A stretch of 44,246 nucleotides of DNA, from positions 1 to 44,246 of the IMG/VR virus record IMGVR_UViG_3300045988_013393, one strand, 5' to 3'. The notes under the pieces are model-generated. The model had not been told where the DNA came from, made no database searches, and was given only the letters and a program-made list of their open reading frames with translations. Source of the DNA: a virus (lineage: Duplodnaviria; Heunggongvirae; Uroviricota; Caudoviricetes). The translations under genes and the position numbers were made by a program. Below, one piece after another: positions 1,239-43,893 of the stretch. Position 1 is the first letter of the stretch, and every line of letters starts with the position of its first letter.

Positions 1239-1272
1239 AACCCTCACTCCTCTGTCTCGTTTCGATAAGTGA

Positions 1273-1301
1273 ATAGTATCCTATTATGTTGGGGTGTGCA
1301 A
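1273..1301 (-). promoter_or_regulatory. Class B sigma70-like promoter (TTGCAC-N17-TACTAT) with embedded GAATAG-N4-CTATTA palindrome
   Basis: On minus strand TTGCAC (1301-1296), 17-bp spacer, TACTAT (1278-1273); ~60-bp element nearly identical to 22553-22581, 32481-32509 and 43865-43893. Confidence 0.5.
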
Positions 1302-4845: not shown

Positions 4846-4874
4846 TTGATATGTGAATAGTACCATATTAATTA
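4846..4874 (+). promoter_or_regulatory. Class A promoter, degenerate copy (TTGATA-N17-TAATTA) with GAATAG palindrome
   Basis: Upstream member of a tandem promoter pair between the XRE gene and ORF 4950. Confidence 0.4.
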
Positions 4875-4889: not shown

Positions 4890-4918
4890 TTGACAAGTGA
4901 ATAGTTCGCTATTATAGT
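4890..4918 (+). promoter_or_regulatory. Class A sigma70 promoter (TTGACA-N17-TATAGT) with GAATAG-ttcg-CTATTA palindrome in spacer
   Basis: Consensus -35; same architecture at 7009 and 10777. Confidence 0.6.
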
Positions 4919-7008: not shown

Positions 7009-7037
7009 TTGACACCTGAATAGTTAGCTATTATATT
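7009..7037 (+). promoter_or_regulatory. Class A sigma70 promoter (TTGACA-N17-TATATT) with GAATAG-ttag-CTATTA palindrome
   Basis: Consensus -35/-10 spacing, upstream of the SSB-like gene. Confidence 0.6.
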
Positions 7038-10527: not shown

Positions 10528-10808
10528 CCCCGGAGGGCAAGATTCAGAAATACGCAAAAGAGCGATTCGAGGCCCTGGGGGGCCTCGTACGCAAATTGTC
10601 GTACGAAAATAGAGTGGGCGCTCCTGACCTGCTGGTAATTCTCCCCGGCGGCATCGTATGGTTCGTCGAGGTTAAGAAAGACGAAAATACGAAGCCTGAC
10701 CTGCACCAGTTACGAGAGCACGAGCGGATGCGTAAACGTGGTGCAAATATTTTTGTCGTCGGGTCGTTCAAACAGGTTGACGACCTAATAGCGAACTATT
10801 ATAGTTAG
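10524..10808 (+). CDS. VRR-NUC domain nuclease (PD-(D/E)XK)
   Basis: GAPDLLVILPGGIVWFVEVKK matches the VRR-NUC signature; sits upstream of an SNF2 helicase, a common phage pairing. Confidence 0.65.
   Translation: MTPEGKIQKYAKERFEALGGLVRKLSYENRVGAPDLLVILPGGIVWFVEVKKDENTKPDLHQLREHERMRKRGANIFVVGSFKQVDDLIANYYS
10777..10805 (+). promoter_or_regulatory. Class A promoter (TTGACG-N17-TATAGT) with perfect TAATAG-cgaa-CTATTA palindrome
   Basis: Lies inside the 3' end of the VRR-NUC gene, upstream of gene 10839. Confidence 0.5.
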
Positions 10809-12780: not shown

Positions 12781-12807
12781 AAGGCCCCGATTGGGGCCTT
12801 AGTTTTA
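12781..12807. terminator. Bidirectional intrinsic terminator (AAGGCCCC-gatt-GGGGCCTT)
   Basis: Between convergent early plus operon and minus-strand tailspike gene; same stem reused at 25211, 33063 and 35545. Confidence 0.65.
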
Positions 12808-22552: not shown

Positions 22553-22581
22553 TTGCGCACCCCAACATAATAGGATACTAT
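22553..22581 (+). promoter_or_regulatory. Class B promoter (TTGCGC-N17-TACTAT) driving plus-strand accessory island
   Basis: Near-identical to the element at 1273-1301; conserved leader ttaactcaaacaggag before ATG 22623. Confidence 0.5.
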
Positions 22582-22622
22582 TCACTTACACCAACAATGT
22601 TAACTCAAACAGGAGCTACACC

Positions 22623-22814
22623 ATGACAGGTATTACTATGTTCTTCTTAATCATTATCGTTTTAGTTTATTTTATCCCGTTTTTAGTGGCCCATATGCGC
22701 GGACATAAAGCGAAACTGGCGATATTCATGGCTAATCTGTTTCTCGGCTGGGTTCTGCTGCCGTGGGTATTTATTTTAATCTGGGCTTGCAACTCGAATG
22801 TCAAAGAGAAGTGA
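22623..22814 (+). CDS. Small membrane protein, superinfection-immunity (Imm)-like
   Basis: 63 aa, two TM segments; YFIPFLVAHMRGHKAKLAIFMANLFLGWVLLPWV...IWAC resembles the Imm-family signature as recalled from memory; AGGAG RBS. Confidence 0.5.
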   Translation: MTGITMFFLIIIVLVYFIPFLVAHMRGHKAKLAIFMANLFLGWVLLPWVFILIWACNSNVKEK

Positions 22815-22852
22815 GCTAGTATAGGACAAATCCTAAACACGAGGAAGTAAGC

Positions 22853-23983
22853 ATGGCCCGGAAGAAAATAACCGACGAACAGTTACAGGAAGAATTGAAC
22901 GCCGGAACAAAGATTATCGACATATCCCGTAAATACGGCATCTCAGACCGAGTTATTCGTATCCGTAAAGCGAAGCTGGCGAAGAAAGGCGTAGGTCACG
23001 GTCGTGACGTTAGCCATCTTGTCCCGGACGGCTACAAAATTAAAGGAACGTCGTCACTGGTGGACGAGTTCGGCAACACTAAGTTGCAATGGGTTAAGAC
23101 AGACACCGACGCCGAACGTCAGGTCGAGTTAATGAAAGCCGTGATCGAAGGAATGAAGTCGGAGATTACGCCAGTTGCGCCGGTTAAAGCGACTCGAGCC
23201 AAACGCGACGATAAACTACTCAATCTGTACACGGTATCTGATTTCCATCTTGGTATGCTGGCCTGGGCTGACGAGAGCGGCGACGACTGGGATATGAAGA
23301 TTGCGGAAGACCTGTTCTCCCGATGGTTCGATGCGGCGTTTCAGAAAGCACCAGATGCAGGAACTGGGGTTATTAACCTGCTGGGTGACTTCGCGCACTT
23401 CGATAGTCTGGATGCGGTTACGCCAGCGAGTGGTCATGTTCTTGATGCGGACACTCGTTATCAGAAACTGGTCCGCTACATGATTCGTATGGTACGCCGT
23501 GTTGTTGACATGGCGCTGGTTAAGCATAAATCTGTTCGCTTGCTTATCGTGCAAGGGAACCACGACGAAAGCGGAATGATTTGGTTAGCTGAGATGTTTA
23601 GTACGCTGTACGACAATGAGCCGCGTGTGTTCGTCGATACGTCGCCGGATGTTTACAAGATGGTCCAACACGGCAAAACTACGCTGTTCTTTCACCACGG
23701 GCATAAGGCGCGATTCGACGCTATCGAACCGGTAATGATTGCCAAGTTCCGTAAAGCGTTCGGCGAGAGTGTTTACAGCTACGCCCACGTAGGCCATCTG
23801 CACCACCAGAAGATTGTAGAAAGCCGTAACATGATTGTTGAGCAACACCGCACCTTAGCGGCTAAAGACGCCTACGCCTCGCGCGGCGGATGGATGTCGG
23901 GCCGTAGTGCAAATGTAATTACTTATAGCGCCGAATATGGCGAGGTCGCACGTTTAACTATTTCACCGGAGATGCTGGGATGA
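22853..23983 (+). CDS. HTH domain fused to calcineurin-like metallophosphoesterase (SbcD/Mre11-like motifs)
   Basis: N-terminal HTH (ISRKYGISDRVIRIRKAKLAKKG); MPP motifs DFHLG, GDFAHFD, GNHDE, HHGH, GHLHH; DxHLG is typical of SbcD/Mre11 nucleases. Confidence 0.6.
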   Translation: MARKKITDEQLQEELNAGTKIIDISRKYGISDRVIRIRKAKLAKKGVGHGRDVSHLVPDGYKIKGTSSLVDEFGNTKLQWVKTDTDAERQVELMKAVIEGMKSEITPVAPVKATRAKRDDKLLNLYTVSDFHLGMLAWADESGDDWDMKIAEDLFSRWFDAAFQKAPDAGTGVINLLGDFAHFDSLDAVTPASGHVLDADTRYQKLVRYMIRMVRRVVDMALVKHKSVRLLIVQGNHDESGMIWLAEMFSTLYDNEPRVFVDTSPDVYKMVQHGKTTLFFHHGHKARFDAIEPVMIAKFRKAFGESVYSYAHVGHLHHQKIVESRNMIVEQHRTLAAKDAYASRGGWMSGRSANVITYSAEYGEVARLTISPEMLG

Positions 23984-24468
23984 AAGATATTGTGATTTTC
24001 GATTTAGACGGGACATTGGCGGATGGTACTCATCGTTTACACCTGCTGCCGAAAGATAACTACGGCGAAACCTGGGCGTGGAAGCCTTTTAACATGGCCT
24101 GCAAAGATGACGCGCCCATTAAAGATAACATCCACTTGTGCAACACGCTGTGGCATACCGGGATGACCATAATCATCCTTACCGGGCGAAGCGACGACGC
24201 CGAGGAAGAAACTCGTGAGTGGTTACGTAAAAACAATGTCAAGTTCGACGTTCTGTTAATGCGCAGCAAGCACGACAACAGAAAAGACATCGTAATTAAA
24301 GAAGAGGTGTTACGTGCTATCGGGCTGGAGAGAATATTGTGTGCGTTCGACGACTCTCCAGCGGTAATAAAGCATTTCCGCGGACTCGGTATAACCACTC
24401 ACGCGGTTACTGAATACGACTGTAACGGGAACTCTACACACTTAAAATCACACGGGAGCGATAAATAA
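23980..24468 (+). CDS. HAD-family phosphatase, polynucleotide-kinase 3'-phosphatase-like
   Basis: DxDGT motif (VIFDLDGTLADG) and downstream segments resemble the T4 Pnk phosphatase domain (from memory); ATGA-coupled to the MPP gene. Confidence 0.55.
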   Translation: MKDIVIFDLDGTLADGTHRLHLLPKDNYGETWAWKPFNMACKDDAPIKDNIHLCNTLWHTGMTIIILTGRSDDAEEETREWLRKNNVKFDVLLMRSKHDNRKDIVIKEEVLRAIGLERILCAFDDSPAVIKHFRGLGITTHAVTEYDCNGNSTHLKSHGSDK

Positions 24469-25037
24469 TGGCTAAGGTAATTATTCTTAATGGCCCTGCG
24501 GGCTGCGGGAAAGACACACTTGCTATGGCGCTGGTAGAAATGGGCTTTGCGAAAGGAACTACCAGTTTCAAGAATCCAATGTTCAATATTGCTCGGGCAG
24601 CGTTAGGCCCGGATGCTTACCACGAATTTCTCGACGGCTACGACGACCGGGCACGGAAAGAAAAGCCAGAATGTTTCCTTAATGGGTTGTCGCGACGTCA
24701 GTTCATGATTGCTATCTCGGAGCAATTCATTAAGCCTGTACTTGGCAATGATTATTTCGGTAAGTATCTCGCTGAAAACTTGCCTGACGGCGACGAAGTT
24801 TTTGTAGTGTCCGACGGTGGGTTTGCCAGTGAAGTTGCCCCTATCGTCGCCGCTGGGCATGACGTGCGAATCGTCCGCTTGCACCGAGACGGCTACACGT
24901 TTGACGGGGATAGCCGTGGCTACCTGTACGATATTGATGGGGTAGTATGCCATGACGTCGCCATCATTCCTGGTGAGATTACATTAACCGCGGCCACGGT
25001 TGCCAATAGAATCCTGGGGATTTACCCAAATGCGTGA
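24468..25037 (+). CDS. P-loop kinase (dNMP-kinase-like; possible polynucleotide/nucleotide kinase)
   Basis: Walker A GPAGCGKDT resembles the SGKDT P-loop of T4 gp1 dNMP kinase; start overlaps the phosphatase stop (TAATG). Confidence 0.5.
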   Translation: MAKVIILNGPAGCGKDTLAMALVEMGFAKGTTSFKNPMFNIARAALGPDAYHEFLDGYDDRARKEKPECFLNGLSRRQFMIAISEQFIKPVLGNDYFGKYLAENLPDGDEVFVVSDGGFASEVAPIVAAGHDVRIVRLHRDGYTFDGDSRGYLYDIDGVVCHDVAIIPGEITLTAATVANRILGIYPNA

Positions 25038-25210: not shown

Positions 25211-25237
25211 AAGGCCCCGAAAGGGGCCTTAGTTTTA
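25211..25237. terminator. Bidirectional intrinsic terminator (AAGGCCCC-gaaa-GGGGCCTT + TTTTA)
   Basis: Closes the plus-strand island; convergent with the major tail gene. Confidence 0.65.
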
Positions 25238-29736: not shown

Positions 29737-30786
29737 TTAAGCACCGACGCCAGTTACCAGGAAGGCAATAGGTACATGCTTACGGTCAACAACACGGTTC
29801 CAGTTGGAGGCGTTCGCCAGGTCCTGCCAGGAAGCAGAGCGGGCGATAGTCTCGGTCCCGTTGCCAGTGATTACCGCGCTGGTGAAGCTGTAACCAAACG
29901 GATGCAGCAACCAGGTCTTACGGGTCCACAGGGTTTCAACGCCACCACCGTTACCACGAGACGCTTCGCGTTCGTATTCCAGCGGGTTAGACGGGTTGCC
30001 CTCGCCGTAACCGATAGCACCGTTACCGAAGATGATGGAGATGAACTTACGGCTCGGGCTGGGGCCGACTACGGTCATGCTGTCGTCAACAATCACGCGG
30101 TAGCCCTGGTAAGTAGCAAACATGGTGTTGTTATCGGCGTCGCGGATGAAGTCGATAAGCTGCTGTTTACGTGCCTGCGCATATACGAAGCTGTGCATCG
30201 CGATAGCGCCCAACACTTCACCGCCGTTGCCCATCAGCGCATCACCCATAGTCTGGGTAGCGTCGATGAACGCGCCTGCGTCGAAGCCCAGAGTAGCGGA
30301 CACGTCGATTACCATGTCATTCTGCTCGTGGTAAGCATCGGTGGCGGCTACGTTGTCGTTGTACAGACCGAGCGCGGTAGCAATCAGACGGCGTTGTGCC
30401 TGACGCTGCCAGAAGTTATCCAGACGGGACGCTACGGATTGCAGCGGGTTCTGGCTGGTCAGTTCAACAGTCAAATCCGCCTGGCCGAAACCTTCGTTCA
30501 GGTAAGCTACGCGAACGTCCATCTCACCGGTTTGCACGTTACGCGGGGTGGCGACGTCCTGATATACATCGTTCGAGTAGTTCGGCTCGATAGAGGTATC
30601 AATCGCTTTCCAGTACGGCAGAACAGCTTTGTTGGACGGGCCGTTTGCGATAGCGGCGGCGTACGGAGTCTGGGTCAGAATACCTGACTGGAAGAACGCG
30701 GTTTTCTCTACCGGGTCCTCTGTCATGTAAGACAGAATGACCGATTCTTTACCAGTTACGATATCGCCGATAGTAGTAATTGCCAT
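29737..30786 (-). CDS. Major capsid protein (349 aa)
   Basis: Directly after scaffold gene (TAATG overlap); size and position. Confidence 0.65.
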   Translation of the reverse strand: MAITTIGDIVTGKESVILSYMTEDPVEKTAFFQSGILTQTPYAAAIANGPSNKAVLPYWKAIDTSIEPNYSNDVYQDVATPRNVQTGEMDVRVAYLNEGFGQADLTVELTSQNPLQSVASRLDNFWQRQAQRRLIATALGLYNDNVAATDAYHEQNDMVIDVSATLGFDAGAFIDATQTMGDALMGNGGEVLGAIAMHSFVYAQARKQQLIDFIRDADNNTMFATYQGYRVIVDDSMTVVGPSPSRKFISIIFGNGAIGYGEGNPSNPLEYEREASRGNGGGVETLWTRKTWLLHPFGYSFTSAVITGNGTETIARSASWQDLANASNWNRVVDRKHVPIAFLVTGVGA

Positions 30787-31490
30787 TATTTTTTCCTCAG
30801 GGCTTTAAGTTGCCGTTCAAATTCGGCAGGGTTCGATTCGTACAGAGCGATACGCTCCGCTTCACTCATGTCTTTAAACGCTGGTGCGGCCCCGCCGCCT
30901 TTGCTACCGGAAGCCCCGCCGCCGGAAGCTGCATTTGCTTTAATCAAATGCGAAAACGCTTTGTGTTCGCGCAGGTACTTGCGGAACTGTTCCGGGTCAG
31001 TTGTGATTACGTTGCCGTCTGCACCAACAAACTTAGTAACCACGTCATCGCCTTCAAACTCAGTCTTAACGAACGGAGCAAGAATGTCTACTGCTTCCGG
31101 TGTGATGAAATCACCTGCGAAAGAGCCTAACACCGCTTTACGTTCGCTGCCGAGGATGCGCTCTGCCATTTTGGAGATGCGACCATCTTTCTCGGCTAAC
31201 ACCGGGTCATACTGGCTACGAATCGTCTTTTCGAACTCGTCCATCTTACCGGCGGCTTTTAGCGCCTCCTGGTGCGCGCGCTGACGTTCCTCTTCGGCCT
31301 CTCTTGCTTTACGAGCGGCTTCTTTCTTCTCGTTCAGCAATGCTTCCTGGTTAGCCTTAAGCCCGGCAACTTCTTTCTCAATCAGCGCCTGCACTTCTTC
31401 GGCTGTGTACATTTTAGGAGCGTCACCGCCACCTGATTTATCTTCTGCCCCAGCTTCTTCCTGGAGCGGATAACGTAAAAAACGATTCAT
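30786..31490 (-). CDS. Scaffolding protein (ATG 31490; ORF track extends to 31544 via TTG)
   Basis: Charged, Ala/Glu/Lys-rich helical protein directly upstream of capsid gene. Confidence 0.6.
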   Translation of the reverse strand: MNRFLRYPLQEEAGAEDKSGGGDAPKMYTAEEVQALIEKEVAGLKANQEALLNEKKEAARKAREAEEERQRAHQEALKAAGKMDEFEKTIRSQYDPVLAEKDGRISKMAERILGSERKAVLGSFAGDFITPEAVDILAPFVKTEFEGDDVVTKFVGADGNVITTDPEQFRKYLREHKAFSHLIKANAASGGGASGSKGGGAAPAFKDMSEAERIALYESNPAEFERQLKALRKK

Positions 31491-31544
31491 AGTCAGTATG
31501 TCCCCTGGACGTTGGAACCCGGGCCACCCGGATTTACATGTCAA

Positions 31545-31590
31545 GAATAAATTATTCCAACATGCAAGGCAACTATTCCAGAATATTCCT
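31545..31590. promoter_or_regulatory. Cluster of GAATA/TATTC palindromes (GAATAAaTTATTC, TATTCcaGAATA, GAATATTC) between Rz1 and scaffold gene
   Basis: Three overlapping inverted repeats sharing the half-site of the promoter operators; possible late promoter TTGCCT-N17-TATTCT on minus strand. Confidence 0.35.
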
Positions 31591-31818
31591 CACATAATCC
31601 TGCAACTCGTAAACCTGCTGCCGTAGTTTTCGCCCGCAGTCAATACTCATAACATCAGCAGACAGGTCTTCGTCAGCATCAGCTTTTGCGTCACTAAATT
31701 TACACGGTTCAACCATCAAAGACGCTTTCACGGGCGGCAATGTGTTCGGAGTGTATTCCGGTGCGCAGCCCGTTATCCCAATTATTACAGCCGACAGGAA
31801 TAATTTATTCATGGTCAT
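31573..31818 (-). CDS. Outer-membrane spanin lipoprotein (Rz1-like)
   Basis: Signal peptide with lipobox ITGC (MTMNKLFLSAVIIGITGC); overlaps the 3' end of the Rz-like gene. Confidence 0.65.
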   Translation of the reverse strand: MTMNKLFLSAVIIGITGCAPEYTPNTLPPVKASLMVEPCKFSDAKADADEDLSADVMSIDCGRKLRQQVYELQDYVRNILE

Positions 31819-32161
31819 ATCCTGAGATGTGATTGGCGTTATCGATGGCGGCCTGTTTCAGCTTAACGCGTGCTTCATCGAAAGTGCAGACATTGCGGCC
31901 AGGCGTCCTGACGTACTTAACGACTTCCTGCGTAATGGTTACGGTGCGGGCAGCACCCTGCTGTTCAGCGACGGCGGCACGGGTGTCGTTTTGTTGCTGC
32001 CGTTGTGTTTTCTTCGCTAGCTCCGCCTGTGCTTTCTGCTGTTGCTGCGAAACGAGATTCGCCCGGCCTTCGTTCCAGCCGCTGCGATACTGGTAGATTC
32101 CGTAGCCGTATGTCAGGAGGATGAAACATGCTCCAGCTACGACAGTTGCGTTAAGATTCAT
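31805..32161 (-). CDS. Inner-membrane spanin (Rz-like)
   Basis: N-terminal TM segment then Gln/Ala-rich coiled coil; paired with downstream lipoprotein. Confidence 0.65.
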   Translation of the reverse strand: MNLNATVVAGACFILLTYGYGIYQYRSGWNEGRANLVSQQQQKAQAELAKKTQRQQQNDTRAAVAEQQGAARTVTITQEVVKYVRTPGRNVCTFDEARVKLKQAAIDNANHISGYDHE

Positions 32162-32412
32162 GTTTCCCCTTTCTCGATAAGTAAAGCCCCGCCTTAAAGC
32201 GGGGCGCTAGTCCTTATCATTTAAACATAGAAACGGCGTAATCTCAGTAAACCAGTTACTTTTTACACAAGCAATAGAGTATGGCCCTTCCGAACGCGTC
32301 AGCGTAACTACACTCAGGACTTACGTCCCGCTCCGTTACCTGCCCGCGCCGCGGTCGCTTGCTCATACTTCACAAGCTCAGGTGGAGCTTATCATATTTT
32401 CAGTGAAAAGTC

Positions 32413-32458
32413 AACTATTCGAATAGTTTATTCCAACGTTTACAATTGAGTGGAATAA
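32413..32458. promoter_or_regulatory. Perfect 16-bp palindrome AACTATTCGAATAGTT plus inverted repeat TTATTCCA-N15-TGGAATAA
   Basis: Read directly; contains CTATTC/GAATAG half-sites; lies just upstream of a class B promoter. Confidence 0.4.
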
Positions 32459-32480
32459 CTGGAATACGTAAATAAATAGT

Positions 32481-32509
32481 TTGCGCGCACCAACATAATA
32501 GGGTACTAT
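32481..32509 (+). promoter_or_regulatory. Class B promoter (TTGCGC-N17-TACTAT) driving plus-strand moron 32537
   Basis: Same conserved element and leader (ttaacttaaacaggag) as at 22553. Confidence 0.5.
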
Positions 32510-32536
32510 TCAGTTAACTTAAACAGGAGATGATAA

Positions 32537-33058
32537 ATGGTTACTACAGTAATTACTTTCCCTGCGTATGTAGGGGCGAAAATATGCAGGGCTAAAAATG
32601 ATGTTCGCTACTATTTGAACGCTTTTTACATAGACCCTGAAGGATTGATAGTGTCTACGGACGGTCATAGATTGTTCGGCGACAATGTGAAGACCAACGT
32701 TGAGAAAGGGACTCTCATAGACATCAAAGGGAGAGAGCCTTCTAAATTTAACTACGCGGAGGTAAACCACGACAACGGCAGTGTATCTTTCTATGACGAT
32801 AATCGTGCGCTTATATGTACACTTCCGGTAGATGTTGTAGAAGGAAACTTTCCTGACTGGAGACGCGTGGCGCACATCACACCGGGTGTTGTCGATAGTA
32901 TAGGGTTCACTCTGCGCTATTTGGCAGACGCGTACAAGATTTCTAAGGCATACAAAAATGAAATTGCTCGTTTCGATTTCCAGGACCAAACCAGAGGATG
33001 CAAAATACAATTTTCAAACACGGCCTTTATGGTGTTAATGCCTGCGCGATTTAAATAA
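32537..33058 (+). CDS. Hypothetical protein (173 aa), plus-strand moron in head module
   Basis: Own promoter, AGGAG RBS and own terminator; opposite strand to all neighbours; no family recognised. Confidence 0.5.
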   Translation: MVTTVITFPAYVGAKICRAKNDVRYYLNAFYIDPEGLIVSTDGHRLFGDNVKTNVEKGTLIDIKGREPSKFNYAEVNHDNGSVSFYDDNRALICTLPVDVVEGNFPDWRRVAHITPGVVDSIGFTLRYLADAYKISKAYKNEIARFDFQDQTRGCKIQFSNTAFMVLMPARFK

Positions 33059-33062
33059 AACT

Positions 33063-33086
33063 AAGGCCCCTTACGGGGCCTTTTAT
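33063..33086. terminator. Intrinsic terminator (AAGGCCCC-ttac-GGGGCCTT + TTTTAT)
   Basis: Immediately after moron stop; same stem as the other terminators. Confidence 0.65.
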
Positions 33087-33544
33087 CATTCTGGCTTAGT
33101 GACCTTCGCCGCTTTACTGACAGCCTCTACACCATCGGCATCAGTAACTTTAACGAAGTATTCACCTGCTGCGTTAACCGTCAGAGACAAAGCCTCTTCC
33201 GGGACGTTTACCACTTCCTTCCCGTCTTTGTACCAGGTCAGCACATACGGCGCTTTGCCCGCCTTAACTTCGACGGTGATGGTGGCGCTACCGTCGACCA
33301 GCTCGGTGTCTTTCGGTTGCACAGAGAAATACACATCGCCAGCATCTGCCAGATACGGAATCTCATAAAGCATACCAGCAGCAGAGAGTGCGATACCGGT
33401 CTTGTCCGCATACGGCATCTCGTCTACAGGTGTACCTAGTACACTTTCATCTTCAACGTAGGTTACGTTCTCACCAGAACCGGATACACGGGCGTACTGG
33501 ACTACGCGACGCGACGGCACATCAGTTACTTTAAAAAAGCCCAT
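33086..33544 (-). CDS. Ig-like domain protein (152 aa), probable decoration protein
   Basis: C-terminal YVLTWYKDGKEV...GEYFVKV Ig-like signature. Confidence 0.5.
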   Translation of the reverse strand: MGFFKVTDVPSRRVVQYARVSGSGENVTYVEDESVLGTPVDEMPYADKTGIALSAAGMLYEIPYLADAGDVYFSVQPKDTELVDGSATITVEVKAGKAPYVLTWYKDGKEVVNVPEEALSLTVNAAGEYFVKVTDADGVEAVSKAAKVTKPE

Positions 33545-33547
33545 AAA

Positions 33548-34171
33548 CTAAACCTCTTTCATTGAGTTAATCTTACGTAAGACGCCTTCGAAAAGGCGTG
33601 GGTCTATGCTATCGCAAAGGCCTTTGTATTCATATGCTAATTCAATTTTTCTATGAAACCAGGCTACATGTGCCTCTTGAGCGGTTTCGTAAGCGCCTAT
33701 TTGTTCAGATACACAATCCACGGATACTTGGGCGATGAATCTTTTCTTTTGTTTATGAAAATGTACCCCAAGCGGGTGTTTGCCTCGAAGAGCGTCGTGG
33801 GCTGTGAGGAAAGTGTTAAGGGATTTGGGGATGAAAACACAGTTAGAAGCGTCATAAACCTTATTTCCTGGATTCAGTAAATCCTTATCTATCTGCCACC
33901 CAGGTACATAAAAATTATCAAACCAGACCTTGAAATTACTGAACACCAACCAATCGTCCGACACGCGGCAGCCTATATAGGTTCTGTTTCTTTGCTGCCA
34001 TTTCTTGTCGTAGCACCTCTTTAACATGTTCTTCCATCCGGCATAGGACGCTATATGCACCCCTCCGTGACTTATCGGTGAAACATCATTAATACCAACC
34101 CCAAAAACAATTCCCATATTAAATCCTATAAGAAAACCCCATGAAGATTGGTCGATGCCAGAGATAGGCAT
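33548..34171 (-). CDS. AP2-domain DNA-binding protein, degenerate HNH homing-endonuclease-like
   Basis: C-terminal AP2-like segment (GVHFHKQKKRFIAQV...IGAYETAQEAHVAW); central HNH-like stretch with Lys in place of His (QIDKDLLNPGNKVY); true start may be internal. Confidence 0.4.
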   Translation of the reverse strand: MPISGIDQSSWGFLIGFNMGIVFGVGINDVSPISHGGVHIASYAGWKNMLKRCYDKKWQQRNRTYIGCRVSDDWLVFSNFKVWFDNFYVPGWQIDKDLLNPGNKVYDASNCVFIPKSLNTFLTAHDALRGKHPLGVHFHKQKKRFIAQVSVDCVSEQIGAYETAQEAHVAWFHRKIELAYEYKGLCDSIDPRLFEGVLRKINSMKEV

Positions 34172-34241: not shown

Positions 34242-35285
34242 TTATACCGACCTAAGATACTCAGCAACCCTGTTGTCTAACTCCGCCATCTCCTTTAGGG
34301 TTAAAGGTCTACCAAAAGCGTCAACAGATATTACCCGGAATTCCTCTGGTGATACCCCACTATTCCTGAATATCGCACCGCGGGTCGGCCCGAGTGCTTC
34401 GTCCACGAACCACGCCGGTTGTTGTTTCAGGAACTCGTAGTAAGTGGTGTCTGCGCTTACCTGAGTACCTCCGTCCGCGCCCTTAGCCGCACGTTTTGCG
34501 CCTTTATCGAGGAAGTCGAACTCTGAACTGATTACCGGGGCCGTGCACGACCGACAATTCGGATGGGCTGGGGGCATCGGCCCTTTACCAATTTCCCATG
34601 TCATTCCGTCTCTGGCTCTGCAAATCGTACTGGTACGGCTATCCAGCGTTGATACCCATTCATATCTCTCAATGATGTCGTCGTTCTGTCGGTATGTCTC
34701 GTTACGGGCTTCGTTGGATACGTGGGACAGCGCAGTACGTATTACCGTAGCGGCGTTGCGTTCAGAGATGTCAGCCAGTCCACCTGCGCCTACGACATTC
34801 TTAACGATCTGCCGCGTGGTTTGGCCCTGAACAAAGCCCATCTTAACGCCTGTTACGAGACGTGCTACTTCCGTTTCACCCCAACCCGACATCAGCTTAG
34901 AGAAATCAACAGGCTTGTCGCTCAATGAGAGCGGTTGAAACTCGGCGGCGGCCCACACCTGTTCGGCGGTAGGCGTAACAAATTCAGCATTAACGTTGGT
35001 GGTAAGTGTCTTTACGTTCCACCCTGCTTCATATGCCGCCAGCTCCTTAAGGTCTTCTGTCAGCTTTGTCTGCCAGTCACCTGTAAGCCCGGTCAGTGCT
35101 TCCTCAAGGTCGCGTAACAATTTATTCAGTCGCGCGGTGCTGCGACCGTCGTCGCCGAATAGCAACACCTGCCGTTTGATTTCGCCCCGCATTTCCTGAA
35201 TGAACGGCGCGAGGTCTTTCACTTCACCGGATGCGGTGCGTTGCAGCCATATCTGGTGGCTGATTAGTGATGTAAGTAGTGGCAT
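34242..35285 (-). CDS. Head morphogenesis / minor head protein (SPP1 gp7-like position)
   Basis: 347-aa ORF directly downstream of portal. Confidence 0.5.
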   Translation of the reverse strand: MPLLTSLISHQIWLQRTASGEVKDLAPFIQEMRGEIKRQVLLFGDDGRSTARLNKLLRDLEEALTGLTGDWQTKLTEDLKELAAYEAGWNVKTLTTNVNAEFVTPTAEQVWAAAEFQPLSLSDKPVDFSKLMSGWGETEVARLVTGVKMGFVQGQTTRQIVKNVVGAGGLADISERNAATVIRTALSHVSNEARNETYRQNDDIIERYEWVSTLDSRTSTICRARDGMTWEIGKGPMPPAHPNCRSCTAPVISSEFDFLDKGAKRAAKGADGGTQVSADTTYYEFLKQQPAWFVDEALGPTRGAIFRNSGVSPEEFRVISVDAFGRPLTLKEMAELDNRVAEYLRSV

Positions 35286-35372
35286 ATTTTATCGTCCCGA
35301 TAAACAATTCGATTTAAAGGTGTCATGTATACGTACGATACTACATTCGTTGATTAAACAGGAGGCTTAAAC

Positions 35373-35540
35373 ATGAACCACCATAAACTGATTACCGCTT
35401 TCATCAATAACGGTTGGACTGAGAAAGACGCTTTTGATGCAGCATACGCGTATAGAAACTGTGACTTGACGCTTGAAGGGGATTCTCAAGAGGATTATGA
35501 CAAAGCAGTAAGAGAAGAAATGGGTTGCTGGGGGAGCTAA
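35373..35540 (+). CDS. Small plus-strand moron ORF (55 aa)
   Basis: CAGGAGG RBS; followed by terminator; between portal and head morphogenesis genes on opposite strand. Confidence 0.4.
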   Translation: MNHHKLITAFINNGWTEKDAFDAAYAYRNCDLTLEGDSQEDYDKAVREEMGCWGS

Positions 35541-35544
35541 AACT

Positions 35545-35569
35545 AAGGCCCCATAACGGGGCCTTTTTA
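35545..35569. terminator. Intrinsic terminator (AAGGCCCC-ataac-GGGGCCTT + TTTTTAT)
   Basis: Hairpin with T-run directly after the moron ORF. Confidence 0.65.
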
Positions 35570-35570
35570 T

Positions 35571-37040
35571 TTAATCCTGCTGCTGCGCCGCCTGCGGAAT
35601 CTCTCCGGCTACCTGAGCAACAGCACCTAACGGCAGCGGCGCGTCCCCGATAGCATTCTTAATGTCCTCGTCTGTCCAGTCGGTTACACCCGCCTTGCGC
35701 AACGCAGCATAATAAGCAGTAGCGGGCAGCAAACCTGCGTTAATATCAGCCATCCACTGAGCGCGGTCCTGGGCGGTCATCGGTTGCAGGAAGAACTCCA
35801 TATTCAATTTAAACTCAACCTCTGTACCTTCACGCAACCCTAACATCGCAGCTACCCAGCGCAACGCATCTGTATACGCCATGCTTACATTACGTGCGAT
35901 TGTCGCCATAACTGACGTATCCGCACCGCGTTGCAGTCTGGCCGATTCAGCGGTGATTTGCTGCGTCGGGGTGATAAGCTGCGCACCAATCTGGATGGCC
36001 TGATTCTCTTTATCCAGCATGTTCTGTTTGGCGAGGTTGTTCTCCCCCGCCTGAACCAGAAACGCATTGCCGCCGTGGCCGATGTTATGGCCCGAACGCG
36101 ACCCCATACGCACGCCGTGGGGGTTGGCTTCTTTCCACTGTTCCATGCTCATATTCTCACCAGGGGCGATGAACAGAGTAGGCTGGCCAACAACGAAGCT
36201 GGACTCCTCATTGTCCGCGCTGTTGCGGAAATGCCCGATATTAAGCTCGGCCAACGGCAGCAAAGGGGCGTCGTCGATGGTCGCGTCATTGTTGCTTGCC
36301 CCAATAAAAGTGAACGGGATTTTGCCGCGTAACTGTTCGCCGAGTTCCGGGAATATTTCGATTACTTCATCCTGAGCGCCACCTTCGGCATCGAAGCGGT
36401 AAATGCGCTGGCGGTAGCGACCATCAATCAGGTCGAGAACGCGGTATTGTTCGCCGAACTTTGTTTCGAACTCTGCGCCCGGTTCTGAGTATTCCCATAC
36501 CTCACGCAGCACGACCATTGTCACACGGTTAACTGAACCGACGCGGGTCAGTCGCCAGTTGATGATGTTCTCCGCGGTATAGAATGCGATGACCGGGTTT
36601 AGTAACCCTGCGTTCTGCTCGGCTGCCGTCGCTGCGGCTGTCTCCGGGGCGTCAACCAGCAACCCGCCACGTCCTACTGAGTCAATTTCCATCAGCGTGT
36701 CCTGGGCATGCTGCCACAGCCCGACACCAGAACCGTCGGCATTGCGTAACAGGTACTCCAGTTCACGAGGAATAATCTGCTCAGGGTCTTTTCTCATAAC
36801 TGAGCCGACCATACCCGACAGGGTGCGCTTGGTGAAGTTGTAGCAGATAGCGCCGTTCTCGTATTCCTCCTGGCGTTGGGCGGCGTAAGTCGGGTCAGGC
36901 TCGTTCTTCCCGACGTTACGCAGGTAACGGATAAGGTCGCCTTCCAGCGCATGGCGCACCTTCTGCCATTTATCAAAGTGATGCAGCCATTCCCGGTGTT
37001 TTGTCTTAACACCTTGATTCTGACCGTTCATAGTTAACAT
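35571..37040 (-). CDS. Portal protein (489 aa)
   Basis: Follows terminase large subunit; size typical. Confidence 0.65.
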   Translation of the reverse strand: MLTMNGQNQGVKTKHREWLHHFDKWQKVRHALEGDLIRYLRNVGKNEPDPTYAAQRQEEYENGAICYNFTKRTLSGMVGSVMRKDPEQIIPRELEYLLRNADGSGVGLWQHAQDTLMEIDSVGRGGLLVDAPETAAATAAEQNAGLLNPVIAFYTAENIINWRLTRVGSVNRVTMVVLREVWEYSEPGAEFETKFGEQYRVLDLIDGRYRQRIYRFDAEGGAQDEVIEIFPELGEQLRGKIPFTFIGASNNDATIDDAPLLPLAELNIGHFRNSADNEESSFVVGQPTLFIAPGENMSMEQWKEANPHGVRMGSRSGHNIGHGGNAFLVQAGENNLAKQNMLDKENQAIQIGAQLITPTQQITAESARLQRGADTSVMATIARNVSMAYTDALRWVAAMLGLREGTEVEFKLNMEFFLQPMTAQDRAQWMADINAGLLPATAYYAALRKAGVTDWTDEDIKNAIGDAPLPLGAVAQVAGEIPQAAQQQD

Positions 37041-43833: not shown

Positions 43834-43864
43834 ATCCTGTCTCTCCTCTCGTTTGTGTAAATGA

Positions 43865-43893
43865 ATAGTAGCCTATTCTATCTTAGTGTGCAA
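43865..43893 (-). promoter_or_regulatory. Class B promoter (TTGCAC-N17-TACTAT) with perfect GAATAG-gcta-CTATTC palindrome
   Basis: Aligns with the element at 1273-1301 including the downstream leader; drives the minus-strand small-gene array towards the lysis cassette. Confidence 0.5.

Follow-up and report, generated by a model that had tools for sequence, protein, structure and literature searches.

A truncated β sliding clamp homolog on a mobile accessory cassette in the head-gene region of a Kagunavirus genome

Introduction

A pocket on the β sliding clamp (DnaN) docks the clamp-binding motifs (QL[SD]LF-type) of polymerases, the clamp-loader subunit δ, Hda, MutS/MutL, and ligase, and this same pocket is an antibiotic target. 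Eighteen distinct residues make up its subsites I and II, according to a review of the clamp and its partners (PMC11139829). The same source reports that δ, the clamp-loader "wrench," has a ~50-fold stronger affinity for monomeric β than for the dimer.

Short phage homologs of polIII-β were noted by Kazlauskas and Venclovas in 2011, with no function assigned (PMC3201878), and our search of the literature found no functional or experimental study of short phage clamps. Annotation of these proteins in GenBank varies from record to record and includes sliding clamp, "DNA polymerase III sliding clamp," β subunit, "beta clamp domain-containing protein," and "RusA-like Holliday junction resolvase." The genome paper on phage fBC-Eco01 calls the protein a processivity clamp (PMC9825357). 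The family has been known and annotated for more than a decade. What is new here is a residue-level reading, in which the pocket is kept and the parts that build the ring are lost, together with the description of a shuffled Kagunavirus cassette that carries the gene.

Results

Genomic setting

The window analyzed here, the whole 44,246-nucleotide viral record IMGVR_UViG_3300045988_013393 from IMG/VR, is an essentially complete genome of a Kagunavirus (Guernseyvirinae), a virulent E. coli siphophage. In its head module, a plus-strand ORF of 173 amino acids with an ATG start (32537–33058) is surrounded entirely by minus-strand genes, as an initial annotation of this DNA had stated. The genes on one side encode the major capsid protein (29737–30786), the scaffold (30786–31544), and the spanins (31573–32161). 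Those on the other side encode an Ig-like decoration protein (33086–33544), a head-morphogenesis protein (34242–35285), and the portal (35571–37040). The 2.7 kb surrounding the ORF match phage Schulenburg at 96.6%, and partial matches to the same 2.7 kb were found in ~300 Escherichia and Salmonella phage records. An overlapping minus-strand ORF of 163 amino acids (32519–33010) was dismissed because homology, fold, and conservation all lie in the plus-strand frame.

The neighborhood has other features of note. A 207-amino acid HNH endonuclease, probably a homing endonuclease, is encoded on the minus strand between the head-morphogenesis and decoration genes (33548–34171); this gene is variable, being present in Schulenburg and K1ind3 and missing from fBC-Eco01 and AV104. 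A minus-strand ORF of 36 amino acids (32256–32366) is annotated in Schulenburg and fBC-Eco01 as well. After this small ORF, just upstream of the spanin genes, stands a strong hairpin (32186–32205; GCCCCGC-TTTAAG-GCGGGGC with a minus-strand T-run), which raises the question of how the spanin, scaffold, and capsid genes are transcribed past it.

Identification of a truncated β clamp

The initial annotation recognized no domain in the 173-amino acid protein. That claim is overturned by four approaches (phmmer, hhalign, AlphaFold2, and Foldseek), which identify a clear β-clamp homolog. A phmmer search against PDB sequences matched E. coli β in three collinear pieces, pairing query residues 16–47 with β 144–178 (TDGHRL), residues 99–117 with β 235–253 (FPDYRRV), and residues 117–171 with β 312–365 (VVMPMR, the C terminus). 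When a 54-sequence family alignment was compared with E. coli DnaN, hhalign returned a probability of 99.65% (E 4e-25) across β 139–366, with a gap at ~254–311 and ~27% identity over the aligned region. Structure prediction, which the initial annotation had proposed alongside profile comparison, likewise gave a β-clamp fold: the AlphaFold2 model has a pLDDT of 95.2 and a pTM of 0.90, and its best 50 Foldseek matches in the PDB were all β clamps (probability 1.0).

Relative to E. coli β, the phage protein keeps residues ~139–253 (domain II) joined directly to residues ~312–366 (the C-terminal half of domain III), while domain I and the N-terminal half of domain III (~254–311) are lost. Domain II lacks its second inner helix in the model, and longer family members retain residues at this place. 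The residues of the head-to-tail β dimer interface (domain I residues I78 and F106; domain III residues I272, L273, E298, and E304; PMC11139829) all fall in segments that are absent from the phage protein. Scores against curated models are 15.7 bits for Pfam PF02767 (threshold, 27) and 17.3 bits for TIGR00663 (cut-off, 137.65), and the 173 residues do not span the three-domain, ~366-amino acid architecture of DnaN. Given that the interface segments are missing and that the scores lie far below the DnaN thresholds, the protein is a DnaN homolog but not a canonical three-domain, ring-forming clamp. It has instead the features of a short phage clamp, namely a phage protein of ~160–230 amino acids that matches only the central and C-terminal parts of DnaN.

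The protein also matches PHROG 3007 (E 3.7e-35, profile positions 12–186 of 190), which is labeled "RusA-like Holliday junction resolvase." Identification as a RusA resolvase was rejected, as the protein has no RusA match and adopts a clamp fold in the model. The RusA label of PHROG 3007 has been copied onto truncated clamp genes in many records (e.g., PQ423993, NC_054645, and PQ850630).

Conservation of the clamp-binding-motif pocket

When the pocket was mapped through conserved motifs, 15 of its 18 residues proved identical to those of E. coli β (R24, L27, T41, G43, H44, R45, L46, P106, R110, V111, Y128, V166, M168, P169, and R171). At the other three positions, β N320 is replaced by T, with N in the majority of the family; β V344 is replaced by G, at a position that is not conserved in clamps (PMC11139829); and β M364 is replaced by A, with either A or M in the family. 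Most columns of the 54-member family alignment that are invariant or nearly so are pocket positions. The phage protein thus retains the contiguous piece of the clamp from which the docking site for partners is built.

Size and distribution of the family

We searched 1.84 billion representative proteins, clustered at 50% identity, with the family profile. At E ≤1e-30, 177 family clusters were retrieved; the best 150 of these 177 are all 141–265 amino acids in length, and most match from the first few residues. Relaxing the threshold to E ≤1e-10 gave 13,828 matches, which probably include full-length DnaN proteins. By tblastn, the protein was found in 237 phage records, with hosts that include Escherichia, Salmonella, Klebsiella, Vibrio, Acinetobacter, Burkholderia, and others. 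The BFVD contains many predicted viral structures of this kind, 163–266 amino acids in length, with TM-scores up to 0.87.

Signals of the cassette

The ORF belongs to a 615-bp plus-strand block (32470–33084) that aligns to fBC-Eco01 and comprises a promoter-like element, a leader, the ORF, and a terminator. An AGGAG ribosome-binding site (32525–32529), 7 nucleotides 5′ of the ATG, forms part of the leader (32513–32536, plus strand). This leader is conserved, in agreement with the initial annotation: GTTAACTTAAACAGGAG is found again at 22599–22615 (16 of 17 bases), a degenerate form is present at 35342–35364, and other cargo follows the leader in 47 phage records.

A "class B" promoter had also been proposed ahead of the gene, and self-BLAST of the region upstream of the ORF detected the corresponding element (32481–32512, plus strand), with a −35 TTGCGC (32481–32486), a 17-nucleotide spacer, and a −10 TACTAT (32504–32509). 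That it is a repeated element is well supported: the pattern TTGCRC-N10-AATAGGNTACTATTCA has four exact copies in the window (1270–1301 and 43862–43893, minus strand; 22553–22584 and 32481–32512, plus strand), against a chance expectation of 0 (100 shuffles). Its function stands less firmly. We infer promoter activity and write of a promoter-like element, since it agrees with the σ70 consensus at 7 of 12 positions and was not flagged by a generic σ70 promoter scan. The same element also heads a cluster that ends in the lysozyme gene.

The terminator proposed after the gene is present and is bidirectional (33063–33082). It consists of AAGGCCCCTTACGGGGCCTT, that is, AAGGCCCC-TTAC-GGGGCCTT, and was called on both strands, with an 8-pair stem and a folding energy of −18.8 kcal/mol; the convergent decoration-protein gene, which ends at 33086, shares it. 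Copies of AAGGCCCC-loop-GGGGCCTT occur at 12781–12800, 25211–25230, 33063–33082, and 35545–35565, where 0 would be expected by chance. All four lie at junctions of converging plus- and minus-strand genes.

The palindrome AATAGGGTACTATT (32497–32510) overlaps the promoter-like element and is a possible operator. Across the window, the palindrome AATAG-N4-CTATT is present in at least seven promoter-like sites and resembles an operator at which a dimeric phage regulator would bind. At the class A sites in the replication module (4900–4913, 7019–7032, and 10787–10800, plus strand), it makes up the spacer between near-consensus promoter hexamers (TTGACA/G ... TATATT/TATAGT). At the class B sites (1272–1285, 22569–22582, 32497–32510, and 43864–43877), it overlaps the −10. 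A half-palindromic variant lies near 4855–4868. The divergent intergenic region contains a perfect 16-nucleotide palindrome, AACTATTCGAATAGTT (32413–32428), in which the half-sites CTATT and AATAG are arranged opposite to those of the promoter palindromes. The motif was reported in the fBC-Eco01 paper as promoters for a phage-encoded RNA polymerase (PMC9825357); no RNA polymerase gene was found in the annotations of ~24 kb of fBC-Eco01 or among the scanned ORFs of the window.

Other plus-strand genes in the window bear related signals. Between the portal and head-morphogenesis genes is another moron-like slot, occupied by a 55-amino acid ORF (35373–35540, plus strand) with no Pfam match. Its leader (TTGATTAAACAGGAGG) is similar to that of the clamp cassette and its terminator is the same, and this slot is the one that carries the truncated clamp in fBC-Eco01. 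Inside the tail/head region, a class B element heads a plus-strand island (~22553–25037). Its genes encode a small protein annotated as superinfection immunity in fBC-Eco01, a 376-amino acid metallophosphoesterase, a 162-amino acid HAD phosphatase of the polynucleotide kinase-phosphatase type (E 8.5e-21), and a 189-amino acid protein with a weak P-loop kinase-like (AAA_18) match. The island may be an RNA-repair module against anticodon nucleases. Small hypothetical ORFs replace the 162- and 189-amino acid genes in fBC-Eco01.

Mobility and optional status of the cassette

Megablast located the full cassette (32470–33084) in 23 phage records, compared with ~300 Guernseyvirinae records that have the common flanking genes. 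Another 47 records, including all seven BASEL Kagunaviruses (Bas70–76), keep only its first ~70 nucleotides (query 1–70, promoter-like element and leader), after which a different "hypothetical protein" is encoded. Schulenburg also carries the cassette. The slot is empty in K1ind3, where homology jumps from 32466 to 33063 (a gap of window positions 32467–33062), and is occupied in AV104 by an unrelated gene of 104 amino acids. Unrelated cargo behind the same promoter-like element and leader was seen in AV104, fBC-Eco01, and Bas70–76.

The truncated clamp gene itself occupies three different slots within the subfamily. In fBC-Eco01, the cassette is found between the portal and head-morphogenesis genes, with 97.6% nucleotide and 99.4% amino acid identity, and the decoration/spanin slot of that phage has the same promoter-like element and terminator with two other small genes. 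The third slot is that of Salmonella phage SE1, where a copy with 67% identity separates the scaffold gene from the spanin genes. Considering that 23 records carry the full cassette, against ~300 with the flanking genes, and that the gene is distributed over three slots, the truncated clamp does not appear to be a core part of the replisome in these phages. The comparisons show a self-contained, horizontally shuffled accessory cassette in the Kagunavirus head-gene region, and the repetition of the cassette ends at several slots suggests that cargo is exchanged by homologous recombination.

The initial description of the gene as a moron is upheld by these data: it is a bounded, opposite-strand accessory unit that is absent from K1ind3, has its cargo swapped among relatives, and is placed in other slots in fBC-Eco01 and SE1. 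Relatives compared for presence or absence do not all carry the gene, and its product is not a structural or assembly protein. We place the probability at roughly 95% for the identity of the protein as a truncated β sliding clamp (DnaN) homolog and likewise for its accessory, mobile status.

Selection appears to act on the truncated clamp gene, because the ORF differs from the fBC-Eco01 copy by one amino acid and three nucleotides over 522 nucleotides and because the family is large and consistently short. Truncation relative to DnaN, with scores short of the Pfam (15.7 versus 27 bits) and TIGR00663 (17.3 versus 137.65 bits) thresholds, might also bring to mind a decaying, functionless remnant of a captured dnaN. 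We consider such a remnant very improbable, in view of a large, uniformly short family whose matches begin at residue 1, an invariant pocket, a fold predicted with very high confidence, and a gene equipped with a ribosome-binding site, a promoter-like element, and a terminator of its own. Moreover, the fBC-Eco01 protein is near-identical although the DNA of its flanking genes is only 87–93% identical.

Being mobile, accessory, and placed in a variable slot, the cassette would also suit an anti-defense decoy, the free pocket of which would sequester immune effectors and toxins, of host or prophage origin, that dock on the β clamp. Clamp-targeting toxins are described in the available portion of PMC12795458, and in Skatevirus one plus-strand island contains both the clamp gene and a gene annotated as an anti-restriction protein. 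Yet the 173-amino acid protein matched none of the PADLOC families at E ≤1, and we identified no known E. coli defense system that acts through the β pocket, leaving the decoy quite unlikely. The broader suggestion made at the outset, an anti-defense or host-modulating role, is a plausible candidate function.

Gene neighborhoods and candidate functions

Outside the Kagunavirus head region, the surroundings of the clamp gene differ. It adjoins a gene for a ParB-like HTH protein in Skatevirus and Klebsiella phages, and the order in Serratia phage Eta is ParB-like gene, clamp, helicase. The adjoining gene in EP23 encodes an Nmad5 protein, and in uncultured phages the neighbors are DUF932 and an extended series of small genes. 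In a Serratia fonticola prophage, the clamp gene comes just after a CI-like repressor gene and lies upstream of, and on the same strand as, genes for a DUF2800 nuclease, SSB, and PolA; in another context, PolA and a DUF5906 (primase-helicase-type) gene are nearby. Phages with their own family A polymerase carry the gene (this window and EP23), as does LPST10, which has no annotated DNA polymerase. Because both situations occur, the truncated clamp does not seem to be tied to a phage polymerase.

Our preferred reading of its function, to which we give somewhat less than an even chance, is a non-ring pocket module that binds host proteins bearing clamp-binding motifs. With the interface segments missing, the truncated clamp would be unable to close a β2-type ring; given no ring and a pocket that is the conserved feature, the likeliest core activity would be binding of clamp-binding-motif peptides via the retained pocket. 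In the version we favor, the protein would titrate out the clamp loader, polymerases, or repair factors in competition with the host clamp. A monomeric pocket would be expected to compete effectively because of the ~50-fold preference of δ for monomeric β (PMC11139829). In a second version, it would tether clamp-binding-motif proteins with no need for the clamp loader. Either would shift the host replication and repair machinery in favor of the phage. Certain observations count against the pocket module. The pocket is also the best-conserved part of DnaN generally, and some of the conservation may be structural. In other phages, the gene lies within or beside replication modules. Simple sequestration of Pol III would harm phages that depend on Pol III, such as LPST10.

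The main rival to the pocket module is a processivity or tethering factor. Such a protein would form a ring-like oligomer, or would bind DNA directly through its helix face in the manner of UL42 and without a clamp loader, thereby keeping PolA of the phage, or a polymerase of the host, attached to phage DNA. Basic residues are conserved on both of the retained inner helices (K134 in 93%, K140 in 76%, K20 in 70%, and K137 in 67% of the family). The pI of this protein is 8.4, above the 5.25 of ring-forming β, and pI has been used to predict non-ring clamps (PMC3201878). Since these lysines are conserved and the family is less acidic than β, direct DNA binding or a genuine tethering role retains some probability. 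In several unrelated phages and a prophage, the gene has a helicase, SSB, or PolA gene as its neighbor, and sliding clamp is the label that GenBank annotators have given it. The family is, however, only mildly basic (median pI 7.7, range 4.9–9.0), the gene is optional among Kagunaviruses that have the same replication module, and the known dimer-interface segments are gone along with one inner helix. It is also present in LPST10, a phage without an annotated polymerase. No canonical clamp-binding motif was detected in PolA or at the termini of the large phage proteins encoded in the window. Regular expressions run over 74 putative proteins of the window yielded no convincing motif of this type, the only candidates being QALLI near the N terminus of a 63-amino acid ORF and an internal QLALEL in a 138-amino acid protein. 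On balance, a processivity or tethering function seems doubtful.

The neighborhoods and the pocket also bear on an adaptor, which would recruit host clamp-binding proteins (Pol III core, Pol I, and ligase) to a phage replication or recombination protein and couple them to the phage helicase/primase, as opposed to inhibiting them. A conserved pocket, occurrence in phages that have no polymerase and must use host Pol III, and recurrent adjacency to a ParB-like HTH protein and a helicase would all be in keeping with this role. But the cassette described here has a single gene with no co-transferred partner, no conserved second interaction surface was identified, and the neighbors vary by lineage (Nmad5 in EP23, DUF932 elsewhere). 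We regard the adaptor as unlikely.

Discussion

If the pocket module is extended to the family at large, many small phages might carry a "pocket-only" clamp fragment as a molecular mimic of the replisome interaction hub. A free pocket, independent of the loader, would capture δ, polymerases, or repair proteins and so rewire host replication and repair. We advance this generalization tentatively. Hub mimicry of the β clamp was not described in the literature examined. A protein that proved to be pocket-only would be a natural tool to probe or block interactions between the clamp and its partners and could reveal a new strategy of host takeover. Although unsurprising as an annotation, the truncated clamp is a well-defined candidate, amenable to direct testing, for a new way in which phages manipulate the host replisome. 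For annotators, neither the full processivity-clamp label (PMC9825357) nor "RusA-like resolvase" fits the evidence. The cassette also illustrates how Kagunaviruses swap accessory genes within the structural region, with a shared promoter/leader end and a shared terminator end recurring over several slots.

The closest relatives are the short phage polIII-β homologs (PMC3201878; PHROG 3007), which are the same kind of protein as the 173-amino acid clamp of the window; among them, the Kagunavirus and Dhillonvirus branch (169–173 amino acids) is the most reduced form. DnaN itself (PF02767/PF02768, TIGR00663) shares homologous sequence and fold over domain II and the C-terminal half of domain III, including 15 of 18 pocket residues. 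The phage protein departs from DnaN in its length (173 versus 366 amino acids), in the absence of domain I and the N-terminal half of domain III, in the loss of one inner helix, and in its location on a mobile phage cassette. The herpesvirus non-ring processivity factors UL42, UL44, and BMRF1 combine two complete clamp domains with a strongly basic face for binding DNA and serve their own polymerase as essential partners, whereas the phage clamp is smaller, mildly basic, and optional. Interference with or use of the β-clamp hub by phages is likewise represented by Twort Gp168 (PMC8565349) and Mu MuC (PMC12867686). As presented in the available portions of those two reports, both act on the host clamp itself; the truncated clamp copies part of the clamp and would bind its partners instead. 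With phage morons, finally, the cassette shares a promoter-like element and a terminator of its own, an orientation opposite to its neighbors, and polymorphism of presence and cargo among close relatives. It differs from them in that the host phage is virulent, with no expression from a prophage, and in that the ends of the cassette are repeats common to several slots.
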